DNA of 64,000 nt from the sequence record PZ347775.1. One strand, written 5' to 3'. The DNA comes from a phage. Within the stretch, counting starts at the first letter, position 1. The number at the start of each line of letters is the position of its first letter. Both the position numbers and the translations under genes were made by a program. Positions 3,465 to 64,000 of the stretch are shown piece by piece. Under the pieces are notes generated by a model. It made no database searches and was not told where the DNA came from. It saw only the letters and a list, made by a program, of their open reading frames with translations.

Positions 3465-3938
3465 TTATTTGAATGATTTGACGTACTGAATAGAGCCTTT
3501 GCTATTCACGAAAGCGATTTTACCATTTTTATTATACATGGTAGCAGTACGCTGATAGCCATAAGTTTGCTTACCAGATTGATAACCAACTAATGCAAAA
3601 TTATCTTCACCCATTTTATTCTGTTTAGCACGAATGCGTTCATGCCCATGCGCCATAAGAACCTTAGCATCACCAGTTGCAATGGATCTACGAGTTTTTT
3701 CATCTTCAACTGTATTAACAAAGTCGTCAAATGAATCAAATTTAGCATGGGATTTATTATACAGTTTTCCATCTACTGCATAATTGTATCCTTGTACATC
3801 CATCTCAACTTCTGTACCATCATCTAATACAGCAGTGATTTTTTGACCTTTTTTAAATTTCAAAAGATCAGTAAAAGATTCAGCAATAATTTGAGAATTA
3901 ATAGCTGCTTCAGTAATAAATTCTTGATATGTTTTCAT
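3465..3938 (-). CDS. internal protein with capsid-targeting sequence (IPII/IPIII locus)
   Basis: N-terminus MKTYQEFITEA matches the T4 internal-protein targeting leader with an (L/I)xE cleavage site. Confidence 0.75.
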   Translation of the reverse strand: MKTYQEFITEAAINSQIIAESFTDLLKFKKGQKITAVLDDGTEVEMDVQGYNYAVDGKLYNKSHAKFDSFDDFVNTVEDEKTRRSIATGDAKVLMAHGHERIRAKQNKMGEDNFALVGYQSGKQTYGYQRTATMYNKNGKIAFVNSKGSIQYVKSFK

Positions 3939-3954
3939 GTGTATCCTTTAATTT

Positions 3955-4272
3955 TTATTCTTTAGGGAAGTTTTTAGAATATGCATCATAAAGCTTATTT
4001 CCAATACGGCGGAAAACTCTAGCCGCAAAACGATTTTCTGGGTTTTTAATCATGATTTGCATCATATAAGTACCCGCGTCAGAAAGAGCTTCTTCATAGT
4101 ACCCGTTAATTTCTTTAAGAGTCCTACGTTTACCACCAGGACCATCAACAGTGATTTTCCATTTACCTGTAGAAGTGCGACTTGGCGGCTCAACTTGTTC
4201 AATCCAGATATAACCGCCTTCTACACGTTGTCCTTGGGCAGATTCTGCAATAAATTCTTTAAACGTTTTCAT
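3955..4272 (-). CDS. internal protein with capsid-targeting sequence (IPII/IPIII locus)
   Basis: N-terminus MKTFKEFIAESA; 105 aa; adjacent to lysozyme gene as in T4. Confidence 0.75.
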   Translation of the reverse strand: MKTFKEFIAESAQGQRVEGGYIWIEQVEPPSRTSTGKWKITVDGPGGKRRTLKEINGYYEEALSDAGTYMMQIMIKNPENRFAARVFRRIGNKLYDAYSKNFPKE

Positions 4273-4310
4273 ATGGTTCCTTTAAATATTTTAATTAGTA
4301 ACTATGAATA

Positions 4311-4339
4311 TACTATCACAGTTCTAGGAGAAAGTAAAC
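4311..4339 (-). promoter_or_regulatory. putative early promoter upstream of internal-protein gene
   Basis: minus strand GTTTAC followed about 17 nt later by TGTGATAGTAT; same module recurs at 8.7 kb and 12.1-12.9 kb. Confidence 0.4.
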
Positions 4340-4343
4340 AACT

Positions 4344-4874
<531 letters not shown>

Positions 4875-5330
4875 TTAAAAGAGGCTGTTCATTATTCGGT
4901 AAAGTGAAGGACCCATCACATATTGCCACTGAGTACGAGGAATAAGAGCAAAAGCATCCATCTCTGGAATCATAACACCATCTTTATTTTCAAAATAAGA
5001 CTCGCAATGGCAATTTCTAAACATCTCATGCTCTACTGGAATCGTATAATAAAATAACTGTAAGTCTTTATTACTAGAATATTTAAATACACCTAGGTCT
5101 TCTAGAAGGTCTGGATTATAATTATTAAAACCAGTCTCTTCTAAGCATTCTCTTCGTGCTGCATCTAGTGCGTTTAAATCAGAATTTTCTACGCGGCCCT
5201 TTGGAATATCCCAGCGATGTGCCATCATTCCAGGCTTACGAGAACCAGTAACTCGTCCCATAAATAAATCTTTATCTTCTGTCATAAAGATAATACCAGC
5301 TGATAATGTTTTCATTTTAATTTCCTGCAT
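4875..5330 (-). CDS. nudE: Nudix hydrolase NudE
   Basis: Nudix box GRVENSDLNALDAARRECLEETGF; alternative start at 5315 gives ATGA overlap with upstream stop. Confidence 0.85.
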   Translation of the reverse strand: MQEIKMKTLSAGIIFMTEDKDLFMGRVTGSRKPGMMAHRWDIPKGRVENSDLNALDAARRECLEETGFNNYNPDLLEDLGVFKYSSNKDLQLFYYTIPVEHEMFRNCHCESYFENKDGVMIPEMDAFALIPRTQWQYVMGPSLYRIMNSLF

Positions 5331-5800
5331 TCAGTGATAAAGTTATTTAAATTTTGAGTATATTTCTTTTCATCAAAAATCTTTTGCTGCCTACGTAACC
5401 GCCATGGCATTTCAATGAACACGCACCATATTCCTGATAGTACTGCTGCTGTAAAAATATTAACAAGTATGATTAAAAGAATCCAATCTCCCGTTCTGCC
5501 TACTGGACTTTCTCCAAAGAAGCAAAATACAAATGATGTCACAGGAAAACTAATGATATACCACAGAATAACCTTCTTATCTGTGAACCAATCAGCGTTC
5601 GTTAATTTAGCGCGACCATTATGAATACACACGAATTTATCATCTGTTGCAGTAGATGGCTTAACTGGTTGATATCCCATTCTAAACTCCCTAATCAGCA
5701 AATTTTTCATATCTTCGGAACAGCCGCTCCAGTCAACTCTATCGACTGAAATGCCATCGTCCCCATCATCTAAATCATACCAGCGAGTTTTTAAAATCAT
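5312..5800 (-). CDS. small membrane protein, paralogue family member
   Basis: 162 aa, two predicted TM helices, C-terminus FITECRKLK. Confidence 0.55.
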   Translation of the reverse strand: MILKTRWYDLDDGDDGISVDRVDWSGCSEDMKNLLIREFRMGYQPVKPSTATDDKFVCIHNGRAKLTNADWFTDKKVILWYIISFPVTSFVFCFFGESPVGRTGDWILLIILVNIFTAAVLSGIWCVFIEMPWRLRRQQKIFDEKKYTQNLNNFITECRKLK

Positions 5801-6159
5801 TTGATTTTCCTACAATCACTCACAAACTCTTTCATTGATTCATTTTCAATATAAGACATGTAGCTATTATATTCTTTTAATTGTATTTTGTAATCCTTTT
5901 TTCTTTGCCAATTTATTTTAAAATTATCATAATGAAAATATAGCATGGTACCAAAGAATGAAAATAATGAAATAATTTTAGTATAGTGAAGTTCACTCCA
6001 AACTTCTGTTATATTTACTGTGCCGTCGATGTTTAAAATAAGACAGTCAATTAACAATCCAAAAAGACTACCCGCAAGAGCTGCAGCCAACGCCACAGCA
6101 AAAATTAAAAATGACTCAGGAAGCGAATATTTGACTTTATTTAGTTTTGGCTTTTGCAT
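5797..6159 (-). CDS. small membrane protein, paralogue family member
   Basis: 120 aa, TM helices, C-terminus FVSDCRKIK; ATGA overlap with downstream gene. Confidence 0.55.
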   Translation of the reverse strand: MQKPKLNKVKYSLPESFLIFAVALAAALAGSLFGLLIDCLILNIDGTVNITEVWSELHYTKIISLFSFFGTMLYFHYDNFKINWQRKKDYKIQLKEYNSYMSYIENESMKEFVSDCRKIK

Positions 6160-6533
6160 CGTGATTCCTTAACAAATTTCATAATTTCATCAAATTCATA
6201 CGCAGCAAGTTTAAGCTGATGTTCCTTTTTAATCTTTTTACACTGTGCTTTCCAATCACGTACGCGTTTACGATAATGCCTTCCTTGATACCAGTATCCT
6301 ACCCAATTTACAGGTACTAATAAAAGTGGAACTATTAATGGAAGAATTAGCATTAACACAAGTATTTCGCCAGAATCAATATCAGTCATAACATCTAAAA
6401 CACCTCCAATAATCAATAGAATTACAAATGATATGAGTATAACAGGACCTATTAATACATCAGTAGGAATTAGCTGGCGCTTTAATTCATACTTCAACGG
6501 TTTACTTGGAAGGTATAGTGATGGTTTTGACAT
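6141..6533 (-). CDS. small membrane protein
   Basis: start set at ATG 6533 (MSKPSLY) with AAGGAA SD; ORF-track start at 6554 is TTG; hydrophobic core. Confidence 0.5.
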   Translation of the reverse strand: MSKPSLYLPSKPLKYELKRQLIPTDVLIGPVILISFVILLIIGGVLDVMTDIDSGEILVLMLILPLIVPLLLVPVNWVGYWYQGRHYRKRVRDWKAQCKKIKKEHQLKLAAYEFDEIMKFVKESRCKSQN

Positions 6534-7110
6534 ATTCTCTACATTCCTTAACAAATTTTTCTAGTAATAAATCACTTTCAAAATTAGGATTTTCCACTAA
6601 TTTATCAAAAAGATCATCAACAATATTCAAGATATTTCTTTTACTAAGAATACGTTTATTTTCATGTTTCGTTTCAGAATCAACTATAAGAGTAAAGAAA
6701 TATTTCTTTCCCTGAAATTTTACTGTAGTATCAATATAGAATAAATTTGACTTTTGTAAGTTACGTTTAAACCATGCGTCACTTAAACTATAAACACCGA
6801 GATAATCAAAATCGTCGTTTAAATAACATACTGTCCATTCAGGAGAAATGAAATCAGTAAATTCAACATCAAAATCACACGTCAATGAATGAATTGATTC
6901 AATACTGTTAATAAGTATTCCAGGGCGTATTAAAGACTTTTTACCTCTAGAAAATCTTCCAGAAAGACTTTCATCAGTTTCATATGAAGACCCCCAATAG
7001 TAATTACGTCCTTCTGCCATACGTTTAAGAGCATTTAGTAATTGGTCTGGAACATCAACCTGTCTTTGGAACTCTTCAAACATTGAATTGAAATCACTTT
7101 GCATTTTCAT
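6502..7110 (-). CDS. hypothetical protein
   Basis: 202 aa ORF; C-terminal KFVKECR shares the junction motif of the neighbouring genes. Confidence 0.55.
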   Translation of the reverse strand: MKMQSDFNSMFEEFQRQVDVPDQLLNALKRMAEGRNYYWGSSYETDESLSGRFSRGKKSLIRPGILINSIESIHSLTCDFDVEFTDFISPEWTVCYLNDDFDYLGVYSLSDAWFKRNLQKSNLFYIDTTVKFQGKKYFFTLIVDSETKHENKRILSKRNILNIVDDLFDKLVENPNFESDLLLEKFVKECREYVKTITIPSK

Positions 7111-7130
7111 TCCTATTTACTCCAAGTAAT

Positions 7131-7146
7131 AGGGGCCGAAGCCCCT
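7131..7146 (-). other. intercistronic CUUCGG tetraloop hairpin
   Basis: minus strand GGGGC-UUCG-GCCCC; identical 16-mer recurs at 47875-47890. Confidence 0.5.
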
Positions 7147-7151
7147 TATCA

Positions 7152-7745
7152 TTATTTCAGAGAATTAATGTATTCCTGAACATCGGCAGAGGTAGTTTCA
7201 ACCCCAGAAATATTACCATTAAAGGTTTCAACTCGAGCAAGGGTATCTTCAATATCAACCTTAGTCAGTGCTGCAATTTCAACTACATCATCAGCAGTAC
7301 TAATTCCAAGGGCATTTGCCGCACGAGTTTCACGGATATATTCCAATTTAACTGCAAGTTCTTGGCGAGCATCATCTAACTCAACTACTTTCTTGGCGAT
7401 TTCAATTCGCATTTCAGCATAACCGTCAGCTTTAGTAGTCAACTGTTCAGCTGTTCGACGATATAGTAAACCGAGTTTAGCATGCATTGTTACATCTTGA
7501 CCTTCGGAAAGAAGTTTTCGAATTTCACGCTCTTTTGATTCAGCCTGTCGATTCTTTTCGATAACAAGTTCACGAATACGTTTTTCTTCATTAATAGATT
7601 TAACAGAAGCAGTTTTTAGATCTTTAATTTTATCAAGCAGTTTTGCTGCTGCAGCAGTATACTGTTCTTCAACAGATAGATTTTTAGCCATAGCAGAACC
7701 AAGTTTAGTGCGAATAAACTCAACAATTTTCTTCAGTGTGTTCAT
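7152..7745 (-). CDS. coiled-coil protein, possibly PspA/IM30-like
   Basis: 197 aa, heptad-rich helical sequence with DDARQELA and DTLAR segments; family assignment tentative. Confidence 0.5.
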
Positions 7746-7788
7746 AGTATTTCCTTAGGTTAATTGAGATTTAAAATCCGTGGGAGTA

Positions 7789-7965
7789 TTATACTCCAAA
7801 GAGTTTATAAACTATTTCGACATCGCCTTTTGCTGCTTTATAACCTTCAGCCCAGGATACAACCGAATTTTTATCTGAAGATTCAAACTCTGGCATTGGG
7901 CTTTCACCAATATTCACGCAGTATGTTTCTTCATTCTCGTCGAACCAAATAATTAAAGTAGTCAT
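7789..7965 (-). CDS. small hypothetical protein (58 aa)
   Basis: ATG 7965-7963 preceded by GGAG SD; MTTLIIWFDENEETYCVNIG...; below ORF-track cutoff. Confidence 0.4.
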   Translation of the reverse strand: MTTLIIWFDENEETYCVNIGESPMPEFESSDKNSVVSWAEGYKAAKGDVEIVYKLFGV

Positions 7966-8904: not shown

Positions 8905-9378
8905 TTATTTGATTTGTTTAGCAGACCAAATGCGGTCTTTAATAATTTTTTGGATGTCTTCAACATACTCAAGAGAGTGAACATGTGGATTATCTTTGAA
9001 ACTATAGGCACGGGCTAACTTTTGGCCTTCGGTTTTGATTACTAAAAGCTCTTTAAGGATAGCTTCATACTTAGCGATAATTCCTTTAACAATATTTTTT
9101 TCTTGTGTAGCTTTAGGATCTGCTTTAGGAGCAGGTTTACCCGAAGCCTTTGCAAAAGCAGCACCAGTAGCAACTAAACTTTTCCAGGCCATACTAACCG
9201 CATTTCCCGTAAATCCTTCGGCTTTCATATCACGAGCAAATTGGAATCGTGATTCATCGGAAGCATCTTTATAGGAATATTTACCCGCGGCAATGGCAGC
9301 TTTTGCAACAGCTTGAATTTCAGTGCTAGATGCTTCATTTAACACCGCTTCATTTAAAAATTGAGCATATGATTTCAT
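8905..9378 (-). CDS. hypothetical protein with capsid-targeting-like leader (candidate internal protein)
   Basis: N-terminus MKSYAQFLNEA resembles the MKTYQEFIxEA leader; Ala/Lys-rich; flanked by twin hairpins. Confidence 0.55.
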   Translation of the reverse strand: MKSYAQFLNEAVLNEASSTEIQAVAKAAIAAGKYSYKDASDESRFQFARDMKAEGFTGNAVSMAWKSLVATGAAFAKASGKPAPKADPKATQEKNIVKGIIAKYEAILKELLVIKTEGQKLARAYSFKDNPHVHSLEYVEDIQKIIKDRIWSAKQIK

Positions 9379-12198: not shown

Positions 12199-12507
12199 CT
12201 ATTTTATTCCGCGTGATGCAATTGTGTTCTGCCGTTTAACACCAGTTTGTTTAAAGTCATGATTGTCGATTTGATCGGTACGAGCAACACCGAATGATGA
12301 TTTAATCTTAGCTTTAGATCCTTTAGTTATAGAAATAAACATCTCGGAAGCCCCTTTCTTAAAGTCCGAGGCGATTACTTCAACGCCGTTCTTAGCAAGT
12401 GACCTCAGAATTGCCTCCGCGTACTCATCATCAAGACTCGCCTGAGTATTAATAACGAATGTCTTTGGTGCAGTCGCTTCATTGATAAATTCTTGATATG
12501 TTTTCAT
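12199..12507 (-). CDS. internal protein with capsid-targeting sequence (ipI locus)
   Basis: start set at MKTYQEFINEA; ORF-track start 12519 adds four residues. Confidence 0.7.
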   Translation of the reverse strand: MKTYQEFINEATAPKTFVINTQASLDDEYAEAILRSLAKNGVEVIASDFKKGASEMFISITKGSKAKIKSSFGVARTDQIDNHDFKQTGVKRQNTIASRGIK

Positions 12508-12539
12508 TTTGATTTCCATTTAGTTTTGTTTTGATAGGG

Positions 12540-12574: not shown

Positions 12575-12847
12575 TTATTTTAAATAAATTGCATATTTTT
12601 TATAACCAGCCGTCTCGTGACGCAGACCTTTTTCATTAGCAAAGCGTTCAATATTATTAATTTGATTCTGATCAAGTTCTGAAATATCAAATACAAAAAA
12701 GTTTCGTTTATTTCCTAACGTTACATGATTCGTCAAATCAATGTTATAAAGATGATTTATATTATCAATCATAGTCTTAACAGATTTGCTAATTTTTACT
12801 TCTTCATTAAGAGCAGATTCAACGATAAACTCTTTGAAAGTTTTCAT
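12575..12847 (-). CDS. internal protein with capsid-targeting sequence (ipI locus)
   Basis: N-terminus MKTFKEFIVESA; 90 aa. Confidence 0.7.
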   Translation of the reverse strand: MKTFKEFIVESALNEEVKISKSVKTMIDNINHLYNIDLTNHVTLGNKRNFFVFDISELDQNQINNIERFANEKGLRHETAGYKKYAIYLK

Positions 12848-46283: not shown

Positions 46284-46313
46284 AACAAAGGGACCGAAAG
46301 GTCCCTTTTATTT
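46282..46313. terminator. bidirectional terminator between convergent genes 24 and rnlB
   Basis: GGGACC-GAAA-GGTCCC hairpin flanked by A-run upstream and T-run downstream. Confidence 0.6.
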
Positions 46314-47874: not shown

Positions 47875-47890
47875 AGGGGCCGAAGCCCCT
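47875..47890 (-). other. intercistronic CUUCGG tetraloop hairpin downstream of hoc
   Basis: same 16-mer as 7131-7146; minus strand GGGGC-UUCG-GCCCC. Confidence 0.5.
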
Positions 47891-60122: not shown

Positions 60123-60182
60123 TTTATGTTCCTCATGTTATGTCAGTAAAACTACTATAACACAACACGAGGGACTTGTAAA

Positions 60183-62240
60183 CTACATCTTGAACTTTTT
60201 AGACATTCCGTTGATGTTAACCAAAGAAGCCAAGATTTGAGAAACTTCGTTTTCCTCTTCTTTTGATTCTTCTACAAGGAATTGATTAAACCCAGCCATT
60301 GGACGAACTTCACCAGTTTCCATCAGATGATCGCCATCATATACCGATTCTTCTAATTGTTCAGAAGGAGGAACGATTGTGCCTTCGATTAGATACTTGT
60401 TATAAGCAGTTTCTTTCATCATGTACGTGCTTACTTTATTAATCTTCAACAAAATTCCACGCGGTAAAATAACTTCAGCTTCTGATGGAAATCCTGATAA
60501 ATGACCTGGAACGATAACTTTAATTCGCTCAGCTCCTTTTATTACCATACCTACGCTAGTTTCAGCATCTTCATTAGCATATGCAGAATGACTACCCATA
60601 TGCATTAAATCTTCAGCATCAACAGAACCTTCTCCTTCACCAGAAAATACTGCACTGGAATCATCTAGAGCCATATAGTTTTTACCATGCTCACCGAAGA
60701 TATTTGGTTTAAGCGATGTTGATACGAAGTTCTTGAAATAGAACATTTTATTTTCAATATTATGGCGTAAAGTTTTAAAGGTAACTTCTTGTCCACGATA
60801 AAGCGTAGTTCCTGGAGGAAGAACTGAACCTTTAGCGAATGCAGAATCCATTGTCTCGATGTGTTTAATAGCTCGTTCCATGTATTCTTCACGGGTAGAA
60901 TCTGGTTTACCCAAGAGGAACGAGTTCATTTCAACATATGAATCTGCACAATAATCTTCAATTACATCAGACTCAGCCTGAGTCAGTCCTTTTGGAGTTA
61001 CTTCGGTGCTTGCGTATTCATATGCCTGAGCAGCAGATTCATTAATCAATTTATAAATGCCATTCATGACAAATTGAATAATAGCTACTTTTTCGTCTGG
61101 CGTGGCTTTAGAACCTTTAACTAAATCATTGATAATTTTCTTAATAACATCAAAGCTATTAGAAATATTAATGTCAGCGAGATCGCTCAAAATTTTATCG
61201 GTTTTATAATCAAAAAATTCTTTATTCTTTAAATATTCTTGAGAACCTTGATGTGTTATATCGCTCTGCAGTCTGATAGACGGATCACGTAAACGTGCAT
61301 GGGCCAATGCAATATGATTTCGGAAGCTTTCTAGTTCATAATCGTTAGATTTAAAACGAGAAGCACTTCTCATACCACCGATAGCTCCTTTGCCGAAGTT
61401 TGAACCAATCTGAATAACACCAGAGTTCATTGGTCCTTCTGCTTTATATACCGGAACTTTAGATTCAAACTCTTGATATTTCTTGGCAGCGAAGCTATCG
61501 CCTTGAAGTGAAGCATCGACAGTAGAGTATTGAGCTTGTGCTGCTAATCGACGACTAATTTTAGTTTTCTGAATAACAGCTTGATCCGTGCGCTTATCAT
61601 TTTCTAAAGCAATAGAAGCGGCAACAGCAACAGCTTTAGGAACAGCATTACCTGTTTTAACGTCTACATAAACATCACCAACCTTTGATTCAACTTTTGT
61701 GAATAACTCAGTTGAAATAGGAGGTACACCTGGAATGTCTTCTAAATTGGCATTTTTACGGTAAACCATAATATATGCATACTTTTTATCATAATCCCAG
61801 ATTTCCTTTAAAAGAACATATCGACCTGCTCCTTTAGTACGTACTAAACGGTCAGCAATAACTTGCATTTGACGAGCTGCGCCATTTGTTTTACTTTTTA
61901 GTACGCGGAATAGGCATGCGTCAATTTTATACTGTTTCATTGTTTGAAGAGCAGTATCAAAAACCGCATTAATAACACCAATTGGATTTCCACCCAAGTT
62001 TTTAAGTTTAACTAATGATAATTTCTCATTAACACCTATCATTACGATATGCATCATTTTATCGCCTGGCTTAACGTTTTTATTTGTATCACCGCCAGAG
62101 GTGTATGTACAAAATCTAAATCCAGGAAGCACACTTTCTTCACCGGCTTGAATAGCAAAAATTTGAGGTATTTTATGCTTAGGATTTAAGTTAACAACCG
62201 GCGCCGAAGCGCCGTCAAATAATTCTGTAATAAGTTCCAT
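60183..62240 (-). CDS. alt: Alt-family mono-ADP-ribosyltransferase (likely alt)
   Basis: 685 aa (T4 Alt 682 aa); R-S-E ART motifs YRGQ, FVSTSL, EAEVILPRG. Confidence 0.8.
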   Translation of the reverse strand: MELITELFDGASAPVVNLNPKHKIPQIFAIQAGEESVLPGFRFCTYTSGGDTNKNVKPGDKMMHIVMIGVNEKLSLVKLKNLGGNPIGVINAVFDTALQTMKQYKIDACLFRVLKSKTNGAARQMQVIADRLVRTKGAGRYVLLKEIWDYDKKYAYIMVYRKNANLEDIPGVPPISTELFTKVESKVGDVYVDVKTGNAVPKAVAVAASIALENDKRTDQAVIQKTKISRRLAAQAQYSTVDASLQGDSFAAKKYQEFESKVPVYKAEGPMNSGVIQIGSNFGKGAIGGMRSASRFKSNDYELESFRNHIALAHARLRDPSIRLQSDITHQGSQEYLKNKEFFDYKTDKILSDLADINISNSFDVIKKIINDLVKGSKATPDEKVAIIQFVMNGIYKLINESAAQAYEYASTEVTPKGLTQAESDVIEDYCADSYVEMNSFLLGKPDSTREEYMERAIKHIETMDSAFAKGSVLPPGTTLYRGQEVTFKTLRHNIENKMFYFKNFVSTSLKPNIFGEHGKNYMALDDSSAVFSGEGEGSVDAEDLMHMGSHSAYANEDAETSVGMVIKGAERIKVIVPGHLSGFPSEAEVILPRGILLKINKVSTYMMKETAYNKYLIEGTIVPPSEQLEESVYDGDHLMETGEVRPMAGFNQFLVEESKEEENEVSQILASLVNINGMSKKFKM

Positions 62241-62243
62241 GAT

Positions 62244-64000
62244 TTATCCTTGAACGAACTTGTAAGGCATGTTTGTAATATCTATGCAAGACGCAATAAT
62301 TCCAAGAGATGATTCTACTTTTTGTTTAACATTTGATGAAACAAATGATGCAAAGTCAACTCTGTCTTCTATTTCAATATCACCTGTCATTGCAACTACT
62401 TCACCAGTTTCCATTAGACGGTCACCGTCATAAATGACTGATTCGGTGAGTTCTTCCGTAGTCATAACTTCAGCTTGAATGAGTTTTGTATTATTAGATG
62501 TTGTTCCGTCGTTATTAGAAGCATCAGTTATTTTATTAACTTTGACCATCAATCCGCGTGGTAGAATAACTTCAGCTTCTGTTGCTATTCCGAGACTTCC
62601 TGGATATACAACATTAACTTTATGAGCTCCATCAATTGCCCATCCTATTTGAACTTTAACGTATTCAGGATTTTCTTTATACGCTCTTATTTCGTTTGGA
62701 TTAATAGTTATTCCTTCTTCATTTTTATCAACTGTTAATTCATTACGAGCTTCTGGTTCTAAAAGACCAATACCAGCATGTGTAATTCCAAAACGTCCAA
62801 AAATGATAGGAGTTAAAGAAGTAGATACAAAATTTCTGAAATAGAACACTTTATTTTTAACTAGTGCTTCGTATATAGGAGCAGTCATACTTTGTGCACG
62901 ATAAACTGTAATGCCTTCCGGTATACGGTCACCATTTTCAAAAGCTGAATCTAAGTTATTTATAGCAGATTCAATTTCTTTTTCACTCATTACATCATAT
63001 CGTTCTGGATTGTAGCGTCCTAAAAGAAGATTATTGATGTCAGTATATCCTGAACCACAATACTCTCTAATGCCGCGCTTTTGTGATGGAGTATATTTAG
63101 AACCATCACGGGCAATAGTAATATCAATCATTGGACCTGCACCAATTCCAGAAAAGCTATAAATCATTCGTTTGAGGAATTTAGTTTTTGCTGCGTTCCA
63201 GGAATTTTTAGTTATTTCTTCCCAGACTTCATCTGGCTGTCCTTTACGGGTTTTATTATGTTTATCAAGCCAAGTATCTTTATATTCTTCAAAGAATTTA
63301 TTAATAGCTGCTGCATACTTCTCTAAACATTTTATTGAAGTAGTTGGTTCATTTTTGATCGCATTAAGAATTACATCTTTAATTTTTTCAGAAACTTCAT
63401 TAACCTCACTTTTTGAAAAGAATTTATAATCATAGTGAAGTTCATCTGCAGTTCCTTCGGCAATAATTTTTGCTGCCTTAGTTTTAGAAGCCAATGAATT
63501 AATTCCAAGTTTCATTTCTTCTGCTTCGGGAATTAAAGGAGCGGTAGCAGGTTTATTGAAATTAGCTGCGGTAGATTCATACTTCTGGAATAATTCACTT
63601 TCAAATCTAGAAGATTCCAATGACTGACTTTGTGCAATTGCTCTACGGGAAATTTTAACTTTAACGATTACAGCTTGGTCAGAACGTTTATCATTTTCTT
63701 GCGCAATAGATGCAGCAATTGCCTCATTTTTAGTTACTTGAGCTCCAGTATCTTTATTGATATAAACATCACCGACCTTCGATTCAACTTTAGTAAAGAG
63801 CTCGGTGCTAATTTCCGGAACTCCTGGAATGTCTTCTAGTGATACATTTTTGCGATGTATAAGAATATATGCATACTTTTTATCGTAATCCCAGAGTTCC
63901 TTAAGAAGGACGTATCTGCCACCCGAACGACTACGGATAAGTCTATCAGCAATAACTTGAATTTGTCGAGCTTGACCAGCAGTTTTAGACTTAAGAATAC
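62244..64000 (-). CDS. second Alt-family ADP-ribosyltransferase paralogue, N-terminus beyond window
   Basis: frame open from 62244 to window end with no stop; ORF-track start at 63620 is an internal TTG; ART motifs YRAQ, FVSTSL, EAEVILPRG; 63630-64000 aligns to alt 61560-61930. Confidence 0.75.
   Translation of the reverse strand, partial: ILKSKTAGQARQIQVIADRLIRSRSGGRYVLLKELWDYDKKYAYILIHRKNVSLEDIPGVPEISTELFTKVESKVGDVYINKDTGAQVTKNEAIAASIAQENDKRSDQAVIVKVKISRRAIAQSQSLESSRFESELFQKYESTAANFNKPATAPLIPEAEEMKLGINSLASKTKAAKIIAEGTADELHYDYKFFSKSEVNEVSEKIKDVILNAIKNEPTTSIKCLEKYAAAINKFFEEYKDTWLDKHNKTRKGQPDEVWEEITKNSWNAAKTKFLKRMIYSFSGIGAGPMIDITIARDGSKYTPSQKRGIREYCGSGYTDINNLLLGRYNPERYDVMSEKEIESAINNLDSAFENGDRIPEGITVYRAQSMTAPIYEALVKNKVFYFRNFVSTSLTPIIFGRFGITHAGIGLLEPEARNELTVDKNEEGITINPNEIRAYKENPEYVKVQIGWAIDGAHKVNVVYPGSLGIATEAEVILPRGLMVKVNKITDASNNDGTTSNNTKLIQAEVMTTEELTESVIYDGDRLMETGEVVAMTGDIEIEDRVDFASFVSSNVKQKVESSLGIIASCIDITNMPYKFVQG

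Follow-up and report, generated by a model that had tools for sequence, protein, structure and literature searches.

A C-terminal peptide tag common to overlapping accessory genes of a T4-type phage and its distribution in related genera

The e.5 to nudE operon and the tails of its genes

The genes e.5, e.4, e.3 and e.2 lie on the minus strand at positions 5312-7110 of sequence record PZ347775.1, a stretch of 64,000 nucleotides of phage DNA that was analysed as a whole and is called the window here. A sequence-only reading of this DNA had described them as four consecutive overlapping open reading frames (ORFs) for small membrane proteins with related C-termini, a pattern suggestive of serial tandem duplication. 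The ORFs are present as described, and the motif at their C-termini, called the tag in the following, is the main subject of this report. The source phage is a Tequatrovirus; over positions 4300-7800 it shares 98% identity with Escherichia phage REP4, and at least 80% of this interval is covered in about 500 T4-type records. The minus-strand genes were named by comparison with phage T4 (NC_000866). The first cistron of the overlapping chain is the e.5 orthologue (6502-7110; 202 amino acids; PHROG 2607 with an expectation value (E) of 3.7e-109), followed by the orthologues of e.4 (6141-6533; 130 amino acids; PHROG 2604, E 6e-71), e.3 (5797-6159; 120 amino acids; PHROG 2330, E 2.9e-60) and an intact e.2 (5312-5800; 162 amino acids; PHROG 2203, E 3.7e-79), each match spanning the whole protein. 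The length of e.4 is counted from the ATG at 6533, and its ORF extends upstream to a TTG at 6554. The last cistron is nudE (4875-5315), which encodes the Nudix hydrolase NudE.1 according to the Pfam NUDIX match (E 1.7e-13) and the T4 annotation. The proteins of e.2-e.5 are 84-97% identical to their T4 orthologues, e.5 being 97% identical, and the order, strand, overlaps and position between e.6 and nudE/e are the same as in NC_000866; the order is also that of phage SA21RB. These genes make up the e.5-e.4-e.3-e.2(-nudE) accessory operon of a phage of the T4 type.

The four proteins end in ...KFVKECREYVKTITIPSK (e.5; LLLEKFVKECREYVKTITIPSK), ...KFVKESRCKSQN (e.4; EIMKFVKESRCKSQN), ...EFVSDCRKIK (e.3; ESMKEFVSDCRKIK) and ...NFITECRKLK (e.2; NLNNFITECRKLK), and all of these tails fit the pattern [LIM]-x-x-F-[IV]-x-[ED]-[CS]-R. 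The tag comprises residues 183-191 of e.5 (LEKFVKECR; 6538-6564, minus strand), 117-125 of e.4 (IMKFVKESR; 6159-6185, minus), 109-117 of e.3 (MKEFVSDCR; 5809-5835, minus) and 151-159 of e.2 (LNNFITECR; 5324-5350, minus); in e.4, the cysteine is shifted to residue 126. The motif thus sits 3-11 residues before the C-terminus. In its degenerate form F[IVL]x[EDG][CSI][RK] it should occur about 0.55 times by chance among 18,900 residues and was observed four times, only in e.2-e.5 and always inside the last 17 residues, so that the C-termini are indeed related as had been read.

The DNA at the gene junctions had also been reported as repeated. The 16-mer ATTCCTTAACAAATTT does occur exactly at 6164-6179 and 6543-6558, within the tags of e.4 and e.5, and on the coding strand it reads AAA TTT GTT AAG GAA T, encoding KFVKE in both genes. 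The junctions of e.2 (5312-5344) and e.3 (5797-5829) are identical at 24 of 33 nucleotides, a match attained by none of 200,000 random pairs of 33-mers drawn from the region. About 1.8 pairs of exact 16-mers are expected by chance in 64 kb, which makes such a pair unremarkable; pairs inside 3 kb are rare, turning up in about 0.5-1% of simulations. However, it was found that codon bias alone, given the same pentapeptide, yields 15 identical nucleotides with a P of about 0.09. Hence, the DNA repeat adds little and is mostly a consequence of the shared peptide; it is the peptide motif, and not the DNA repeat, that is the strong signal.

The tails also carry the signals for translation of the following gene, another point in which the earlier description proved accurate at every junction. 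The cistrons overlap by 32 nucleotides (e.5/e.4), 19 nucleotides (e.4/e.3) and 4 nucleotides (e.3/e.2 and e.2/nudE). At all four junctions, a Shine-Dalgarno (SD) sequence, AAGGAA or AGGAAA, is located 5-10 nucleotides before the ATG and inside the tail of the upstream gene. For e.4, it is the AAGGAA formed by the AAG GAA codons of the e.5 tag, 10 nucleotides upstream of the ATG; for e.3, with its ATG at 6159, it is the AAGGAA in the e.4 tag. The SD sequences of e.2 and nudE are both AGGAAA, formed by the Arg-Lys codons of e.3 and e.2, and are followed by ATGA stop/start overlaps at 5797-5800 and 5312-5315.

The tag across T4-like phages

A catalogue of about 38 tagged proteins was assembled, with 2-6 per genome and with both soluble proteins and proteins with two transmembrane segments (2-TM proteins) among them. 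The search for further tagged genes was anchored on e.6, which encodes a 197-residue helical protein directly upstream of e.5 (ORF at 7152-7745, minus strand) and was found in 1,100 phage records; it revealed the tag also in Jiaodavirus, Karamvirus, Roskildevirus and the Aeromonas Biquartavirus. Ten genera are counted, namely Tequatro-, Mosig-, Dhaka-, Gapriver-, Kanagawa-, Jiaoda-, Karam-, Roskilde- and Biquartavirus together with the T4 reference. The invariant core across the catalogue is [FW]-[IV]-x-x-C-[RK] and the full signature is hydrophobic-x-x-[FW]-[IV]-x-x-C-[RK]; its variants include FIKYCRK, WIRSCRK, FIAKCRAK, FINYCRG, FIRICRK, FIDDCRR, FISKCRT, FIAMCRE and FVDYCRR. It ends 2-TM proteins of 98-124 amino acids as well as soluble proteins of 96-263 amino acids. 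Phage RB69 has five tagged proteins, which are not all adjacent.

The motif is kept in the orthologues of RB69, VR7, Dhakavirus and Kanagawavirus at overall identities of 19-46%. The alignment of e.3 (19-39% identity) has only 11 invariant columns, two of which are F and C. In that of e.2 (31-54% identity), F, I, C, R and K are invariant, and they remain so in the relatives from Dhaka- and Kanagawavirus, where identity falls to 26-31%. In e.5, F186, E189, C190 and R191 are invariant, including in one member of 45% identity. The codons of the tag vary, with AGG, AGA, CGA, CGT and CGC used for arginine, TGT and TGC for cysteine, and TTT and TTC for phenylalanine. The SD sequence of the next gene lies in the K-E codons in most genera, including RB69, VR7 and Dhakavirus (AAGGAA, GAGGAA, AAGGAG or AAAGGG); in e.2 and e.3 of the T4 type it has moved to the R-K codons, with two codons added, and in the e.5-slot protein of Dhakavirus it is found nine codons downstream of the motif. 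An explanation by the ribosome-binding site alone fails, because the codons of Arg, Cys and Phe vary and the position of the SD sequence shifts relative to the motif.

Tagged proteins are always found in the e.6-nudE-e neighbourhood. None of the other ORFs of the 64-kb window, and none elsewhere in the T4 genome, has the tag, and a scan of IMG/VR for coding sequences of FIxECRK followed by a stop gave real ORFs only for T4-like e.2/e.3, the out-of-frame matches being of chance number. In every genus examined that has a tagged e.5-slot protein, the conserved e.6 directly precedes it. The e.5-slot proteins are beyond recognition by BLAST except for the tag and are still linked by structure search. 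The identity of e.6 is 50-100% (50-61% to phages of Klebsiella, Enterobacter, Aeromonas and Erwinia), far above that of the gene after it. On the sequence evidence, the conclusion that the tag is under protein-level selection, specific to this neighbourhood and conserved across T4-like genera, unlike the protein bodies that carry it, is well supported.

With respect to the carriers in the window, two hydrophobic segments were found in each of e.2, e.3 and e.4 and none in e.5. Hence, the description of the genes as encoding small membrane proteins holds for the first three and not for e.5. A prediction of transmembrane (TM) topology, which had been suggested as a check, was run on them: lysine and arginine together number 4-15 in the termini of e.2-e.4 and 0-1 in the inter-TM loops, which also hold acidic residues, and from this positive-inside pattern an N-in/C-in topology is predicted for all three. 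These proteins are predicted to cross the inner membrane twice and to have both termini, including tails of 31 (e.2), 42 (e.3) and 54 (e.4) residues, in the cytoplasm. In all three, the two TM segments come with a basic juxtamembrane region and a helical tail; in e.4, the TM segments lie at about 28-50 and 58-76 and are followed by a basic tail, and in e.2, a conserved acidic N-terminal domain of about 75 residues precedes the two segments and the tail. The tails are strongly amphipathic, with hydrophobic moments (muH) of 0.6-0.7. In the AlphaFold2 model of e.3, with a predicted local distance difference test score (pLDDT) of 73, the TM segments form a hairpin and TM2 runs on as a single helix (58-119) to the C-terminus, the tail being the most confident part. 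The model of e.5 (pLDDT 62.7; predicted template modelling score 0.64) is that of a soluble alpha/beta protein in which the tag would lie within the terminal helix 181-196.

Searches for known families gave little. Scans of e.2-e.5 and e.6 with Pfam, NCBIfam and PADLOC returned nothing significant, and the known exclusion and defence families in these collections gave zero significant matches for e.2, e.3, e.4 and e.5; precomputed assignments exist for homologues of e.4 (Pfam PF26873) and relatives of e.5 (PF26876). The names 'sulfurtransferase' and 'DNA primase' attached in databases to relatives of e.3 and e.4, and 'host specificity protein' attached to e.6, were not supported by the Pfam, NCBIfam and PHROG scans. 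A first impression that e.6 resembles PspA likewise found no support, as the search of e.6 against PDB sequences gave no match. About half of the T4 genes are without a function, the e.2-e.8 block included.

Expression, proposed role and alternative explanations

The stretch from 5300 to 7150 yielded no site resembling an early, middle or late promoter. A T4 early-promoter-like site (GTTTAT...TATAAT; 7788-7812, minus strand), identified by pattern match only, lies upstream of e.6, and in phage SA21RB the annotation gives an early promoter at the equivalent site. The genes e.6 and e.5 are separated by a GGGGC-UUCG-GCCCC hairpin (7131-7146, minus strand; z score of -2.15), which has no run of T behind it on the coding strand; a terminator is annotated here in a related phage. 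Transcripts from the e.6 promoter presumably read through this hairpin into e.5-nudE. On comparing the folding of the junction RNAs with that of shuffled sequence, it was found to be no better (z of +0.75 to +0.98, with one of -1.29), and no structure sequestering a ribosome-binding site was seen in them. Judged from the overlaps, the SD sequences inside upstream genes and the lack of an internal promoter-like site, the arrangement fits expression of e.5 to nudE as one polycistronic transcript with coupled translation, starting from the candidate early promoter of e.6.

A few further features of this neighbourhood were recorded. The 16-nucleotide sequence of the UUCG hairpin occurs twice in the window (7131-7146 and 47875-47890), and a similar pair, GGGACC-GAAA-GGTCCC, is present at 46290 and 59809; these hairpins look like stable intergenic tetraloops. 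Downstream of nudE lies the lysozyme gene e (4344-4838, minus strand, by comparison with NC_000866). Just upstream of its start, over its SD sequence, there is a perfect 11-bp inverted repeat, AATACCTCCTA/TAGGAGGTATT, at 4839-4872, and two TATAAATA late-promoter motifs are found on the minus strand at 4859 and 4872. We take this arrangement to resemble one that blocks translation of e from early transcripts. As for nudE itself, NudE.1 hydrolyses NAD and NAD-capped RNA, and lysis is delayed in a catalytic mutant (bioRxiv 10.1101/2024.04.04.588121).

The tag may be a helix for docking or assembly in the cytoplasm, carried by a varying set of accessory proteins that are made from one coupled operon, a proposal that we regard as evenly balanced between right and wrong. 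Through the helix, accessory proteins that change quickly, some in the membrane and some soluble, would be gathered on the cytoplasmic side of the inner membrane, either on a single partner or on one another. A gene newly arrived in the operon would tend to retain the tag or gain one because its codons hold the ribosome-binding site of the next cistron. Candidate roles for these proteins are host takeover, exclusion, anti-defence and functions related to lysis. Several points weigh against this proposal. We infer docking from the pattern of conservation and from helix geometry. The cysteine has been lost in e.4 of VR7 and in some proteins of Roskilde-, Karam- and Jiaodavirus, and hence not all members can require it. 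Phages in nature can do without the genes, as is seen from a frameshift in e.2 of T4, from the loss of the e.3 body in LF82-31 and from the deletions in UFV05-type phages, all described below. One ancestral 2-TM gene of which the tail alone is constrained would look much alike for the membrane members, and literature searches on e.2-e.5 by gene names and protein accessions returned no paper.

A more specific and doubtful version of the docking proposal is that the [FW]-I-x-x-C-R helix could be a C-terminal address tag plugging diversifying membrane and soluble proteins into one conserved phage partner. The obvious candidate for this partner would be e.6, since it is 50-100% conserved and always lies directly upstream of a hypervariable tagged protein. 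If this were true, there would be a modular system of a conserved hub and swappable tagged accessories in the most-studied phage family, overlooked so far, with a logic at the cell membrane like that of the capsid-targeting sequence (CTS) discussed below. In any case, the tag offers an experimental handle on 2-6 otherwise unrelated proteins per genome in one neighbourhood of ten genera. A protein motif and the ribosome-binding site of the next gene occupy the same nucleotides, which may explain how newly acquired genes of the operon inherit the tag. If the tag is inert, the region is one of ordinary, catalogued T4 accessory genes. A shared C-terminal tag spanning genera appears not to have been described before and is a modest but testable lead.

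Descent of the four genes from a single gene for a small membrane protein by serial tandem duplication, as had been suggested, is improbable; on this view, only the tails would still be recognisable. Pairwise blastp among the four proteins gave weak matches, in the C-terminal part only. Profile comparisons were made with hhalign after removing P0098, a natural e.4::e.2 chimera, from the e.4 alignment. In these, e.3 and e.4 matched over 40 tail columns (76% probability), e.2 and e.3 over 19 columns (81%) and e.3 and ORF133c of RB69 over 19 columns (88%); the matches of e.2 with e.4 (8 columns) and of e.4 with e.5 (7 columns) were not significant. An e.2/e.4 link at 91.5% was an artefact of the chimera and was gone once P0098 had been removed. 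Scores of hidden Markov models on full, tail-less and tail-only versions placed essentially all of the cross-family signal in the tail, and 40 tagged proteins with their tails removed fell into 19 clusters in phmmer searches, with no link between them at E<=1. The alignments of the four genes that had been suggested thus recovered similarity of the tails, over 7-40 columns, and not over most of the protein length.

The pair e.3/e.4 is the one for which more was found. On comparing the bodies only, hhalign gave 65% for this pair over 24 juxtamembrane columns and at most 15% for every other pair, and the signal agrees with a nearly full-length cross-match of e.3 to PHROG 2604, the family of e.4 (E 0.015). 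When e.3 was searched exhaustively with phmmer against 1.84 billion representatives, five matches came back, namely four relatives of e.3 and one spurious repeat protein, and no cross-family link. The likeness of e.2, e.3 and e.4 in layout and size would also suit duplication, as would the runs of three to four adjacent tagged 2-TM genes (98-124 amino acids) in other genera and the viable in-frame e.4::e.2 hybrid, joined inside TM1, in five phage records. However, e.5 is soluble, has another fold and shares only 7-10 residues; e.2 and e.4 have only eight residues in common; the 19 clusters show no body-to-body similarity; the same tag is carried by clearly unrelated soluble proteins of 96-263 amino acids; and the common peptide, together with codon bias and the SD sequence, accounts for the 16-nucleotide identity. 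From these alignments, it is plausible that e.3 and e.4 are old paralogues that arose by tandem duplication; for e.2 a duplication cannot be demonstrated, and for e.5, which is a different protein, it has no support. Similarity restricted to the ribosome-binding region of otherwise unrelated proteins had been named as the outcome that would speak against duplication; the bodies are in fact mostly unrelated, but the tail is a protein-level motif present in ten genera. The observation is therefore confirmed and its interpretation partly supported.

Natural variants of the operon bear on a second alternative. In the T4 reference, e.2 (NC_000866 67469-67699; 3470-3700 of our locus L001) has a frameshift and is annotated with 102 amino acids; the 161 non-coding nucleotides that follow still encode TM2 and the tail in another frame, and T4T annotates e.2a and e.2b. 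Most relatives have an intact e.2 of 162 amino acids, like the phage studied here. Five UFV05-type phages (vB_EcoM-UFV05, UFV06, 09, 10 and 11) carry the in-frame e.4::e.2 hybrid, a protein of 106 amino acids (locus L035, 1501-1821) of which the first 31 residues are from e.4 and the remainder from e.2; the crossover, TCCTGT, is at the start of TM1 and inside it, and e.3 and halves of e.4 and e.2 have been deleted. In LF82-31 (locus L008, 4449-4560; also L050, an IMG/VR contig), the body of e.3 is deleted to MQKP and a stop; the end of the gene remains, a stretch of roughly 25 codons that includes the tag and the junction with the gene that follows. It follows from these deletions and the frameshift that the genes are dispensable and in flux.

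The junction DNA might be thought of as a cassette boundary for swaps, deletions and insertions of the T4 type, with the peptide as a passenger, which we consider quite unlikely. There are signs of concerted evolution within genomes, since e.2 and e.3 of the T4 type both have the derived CRKxK tail and the AGGAAA SD sequence, and their orthologues in Dhaka-, VR7- and Kanagawavirus have the short form of the tail. The exact e.4/e.5 16-mer is present in every Tequatrovirus locus examined and the RB69 copies differ, and the gene content between tags varies by genus. Nevertheless, both mappable deletions lie outside the junction repeats, as the UFV05 crossover falls inside TM1 and the LF82-31 deletion is internal to e.3, so that neither used them. 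Repeats of 16-24 nucleotides are short for homologous recombination in T4. Furthermore, conservation of the amino acids with synonymous drift requires selection on the protein.

As a separate observation, RB69 (ORF139c-136c), VR7, Dhakavirus and Karamvirus have a second array, of small soluble acidic paralogues, downstream of e.3 (L007 4790-5585 for RB69; L009 3984-4565; L010 3716-4297; L065 5799-6325). Each of these proteins has the C-terminal sequence G-(A/G)-W-(V/L)-(S/A)-S-S-x-x-C, in which the cysteine is the last residue; this is another conserved C-terminal cysteine motif in this hyperplastic region.

A third alternative, in which the constraint acts on the RNA and the tails are alike only through encoding the SD sequence, an A-rich spacer and ATGA, is very improbable and, judging by the codons, already largely refuted. 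Many members do encode K-E as AAGGAA, GAGGAA or AAGGAG and end in AAATGA, the K-G of PEi26 (AAAGGG) remains purine-rich, and LF82-31 lost the e.3 body and retains the tail and junction. Yet the five arginine codons come from two codon families, the third positions of Cys and Phe vary, the x-x positions are often not purine-rich (FINYCR, FIRICR, WIRSCR, FIAMCR), the SD sequence may lie as far as nine codons downstream (in the e.5-slot protein of Dhakavirus), invariance falls on F, I, C and R rather than on the SD codons, and the junction RNAs have no special structure.

Comparison with known systems

It is hardly credible that the tails are a C-terminal version of the T4 capsid-targeting and gp21 protease motif that docks to the prohead core and is clipped after Glu, with proheads tethered to the membrane or e.5 packaged as an internal protein as the outcome: the Glu required at P1 varies from genus to genus (Y, S, K, I, G, M and D occur), no CTS site has the conserved Cys-Arg, integral membrane proteins account for three of the four carriers, e.2-e.5 are genes of an early operon, and the match is four residues long in a pattern for which about seven matches are expected by chance. 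The idea has its grounds in the pattern hydrophobic-x-x-F-[ILV]-x-[ED], which in the window matches five internal-protein N-termini, the gp23 cleavage site, a small core protein, an Alt-like C-terminus and the four tails of e.2-e.5; the matching positions are the CTS determinants, residues 4, 7, 8 and 10 (PMC9026906). It was also reported that gp21 removes C-terminal propeptides from Alt and from itself and that proheads remain bound to the membrane without proteolysis (PMC9026906). A CTS occupies about the first 10 residues of a protein, and the motif in the window is C-terminal; hydrophobic-x-x-F-I-x-Glu fits the four window tails, with Asp in e.3, and Glu is replaced in other genera.

The internal-protein-like genes themselves were noted in passing. 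Five such genes (3465-3938, 3955-4272, 8905-9378, 12199-12519 and 12575-12847) have CTS-like N-termini (MKTYQEFITEA, MKTFKEFIAES, MKSYAQFLNEA, MKTYQEFINEA and MKTFKEFIVES), and two of the internal-protein-like genes have a common exact repeat of 23 nucleotides at 3916 and 12485. At approximately 60180-63870, exact repeats of 16-22 nucleotides about 2,092 nucleotides apart (60307/62398, 60468/62565, 61729/63823 and 61770/63864) and a 685-residue minus-strand ORF suggest two tandem alt-like (ADP-ribosyltransferase) paralogues.

The nearest known genes are e.2-e.5 of T4 (NC_000866 T4p125-128; PHROGs 2203, 2330, 2604 and 2607), of which the window genes are direct orthologues. These are catalogued genes that are all annotated as hypothetical, and the genes themselves are ordinary and known; the difference lies in e.2, which in the T4 reference is frameshifted (102 amino acids and a 161-nucleotide gap) and in the phage studied here is intact (162 amino acids). 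Coupled overlapping cistrons are common in T4 early operons, likewise with stop/start overlaps of 4-32 nucleotides and the SD sequence inside the upstream gene. Ordinary coupling, however, imposes no conserved upstream peptide, whereas here the peptide is kept regardless of where the SD sequence lies. Imm, Sp, Ac and RI are likewise small, non-essential, early envelope proteins of T-even phages, but they have no sequence or profile similarity to e.2-e.5 and none of them has the tag.

The known system that comes closest to the tag in its logic is the CTS at the N-terminus of the internal proteins. The CTS of IPI, IPII and IPIII is likewise a terminal peptide of about 10 residues on unrelated, fast-evolving proteins of the same hyperplastic region (PMC9026906), and the two have a similar hydrophobic-x-x-F-I-x-E pattern. 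They differ in that the CTS is N-terminal, has an obligatory Glu cut by gp21 and is carried by soluble basic proteins, whereas the tag is C-terminal, has invariant F, I, C and R with a variable Glu, and is carried mostly by proteins that are predicted to lie in the membrane.

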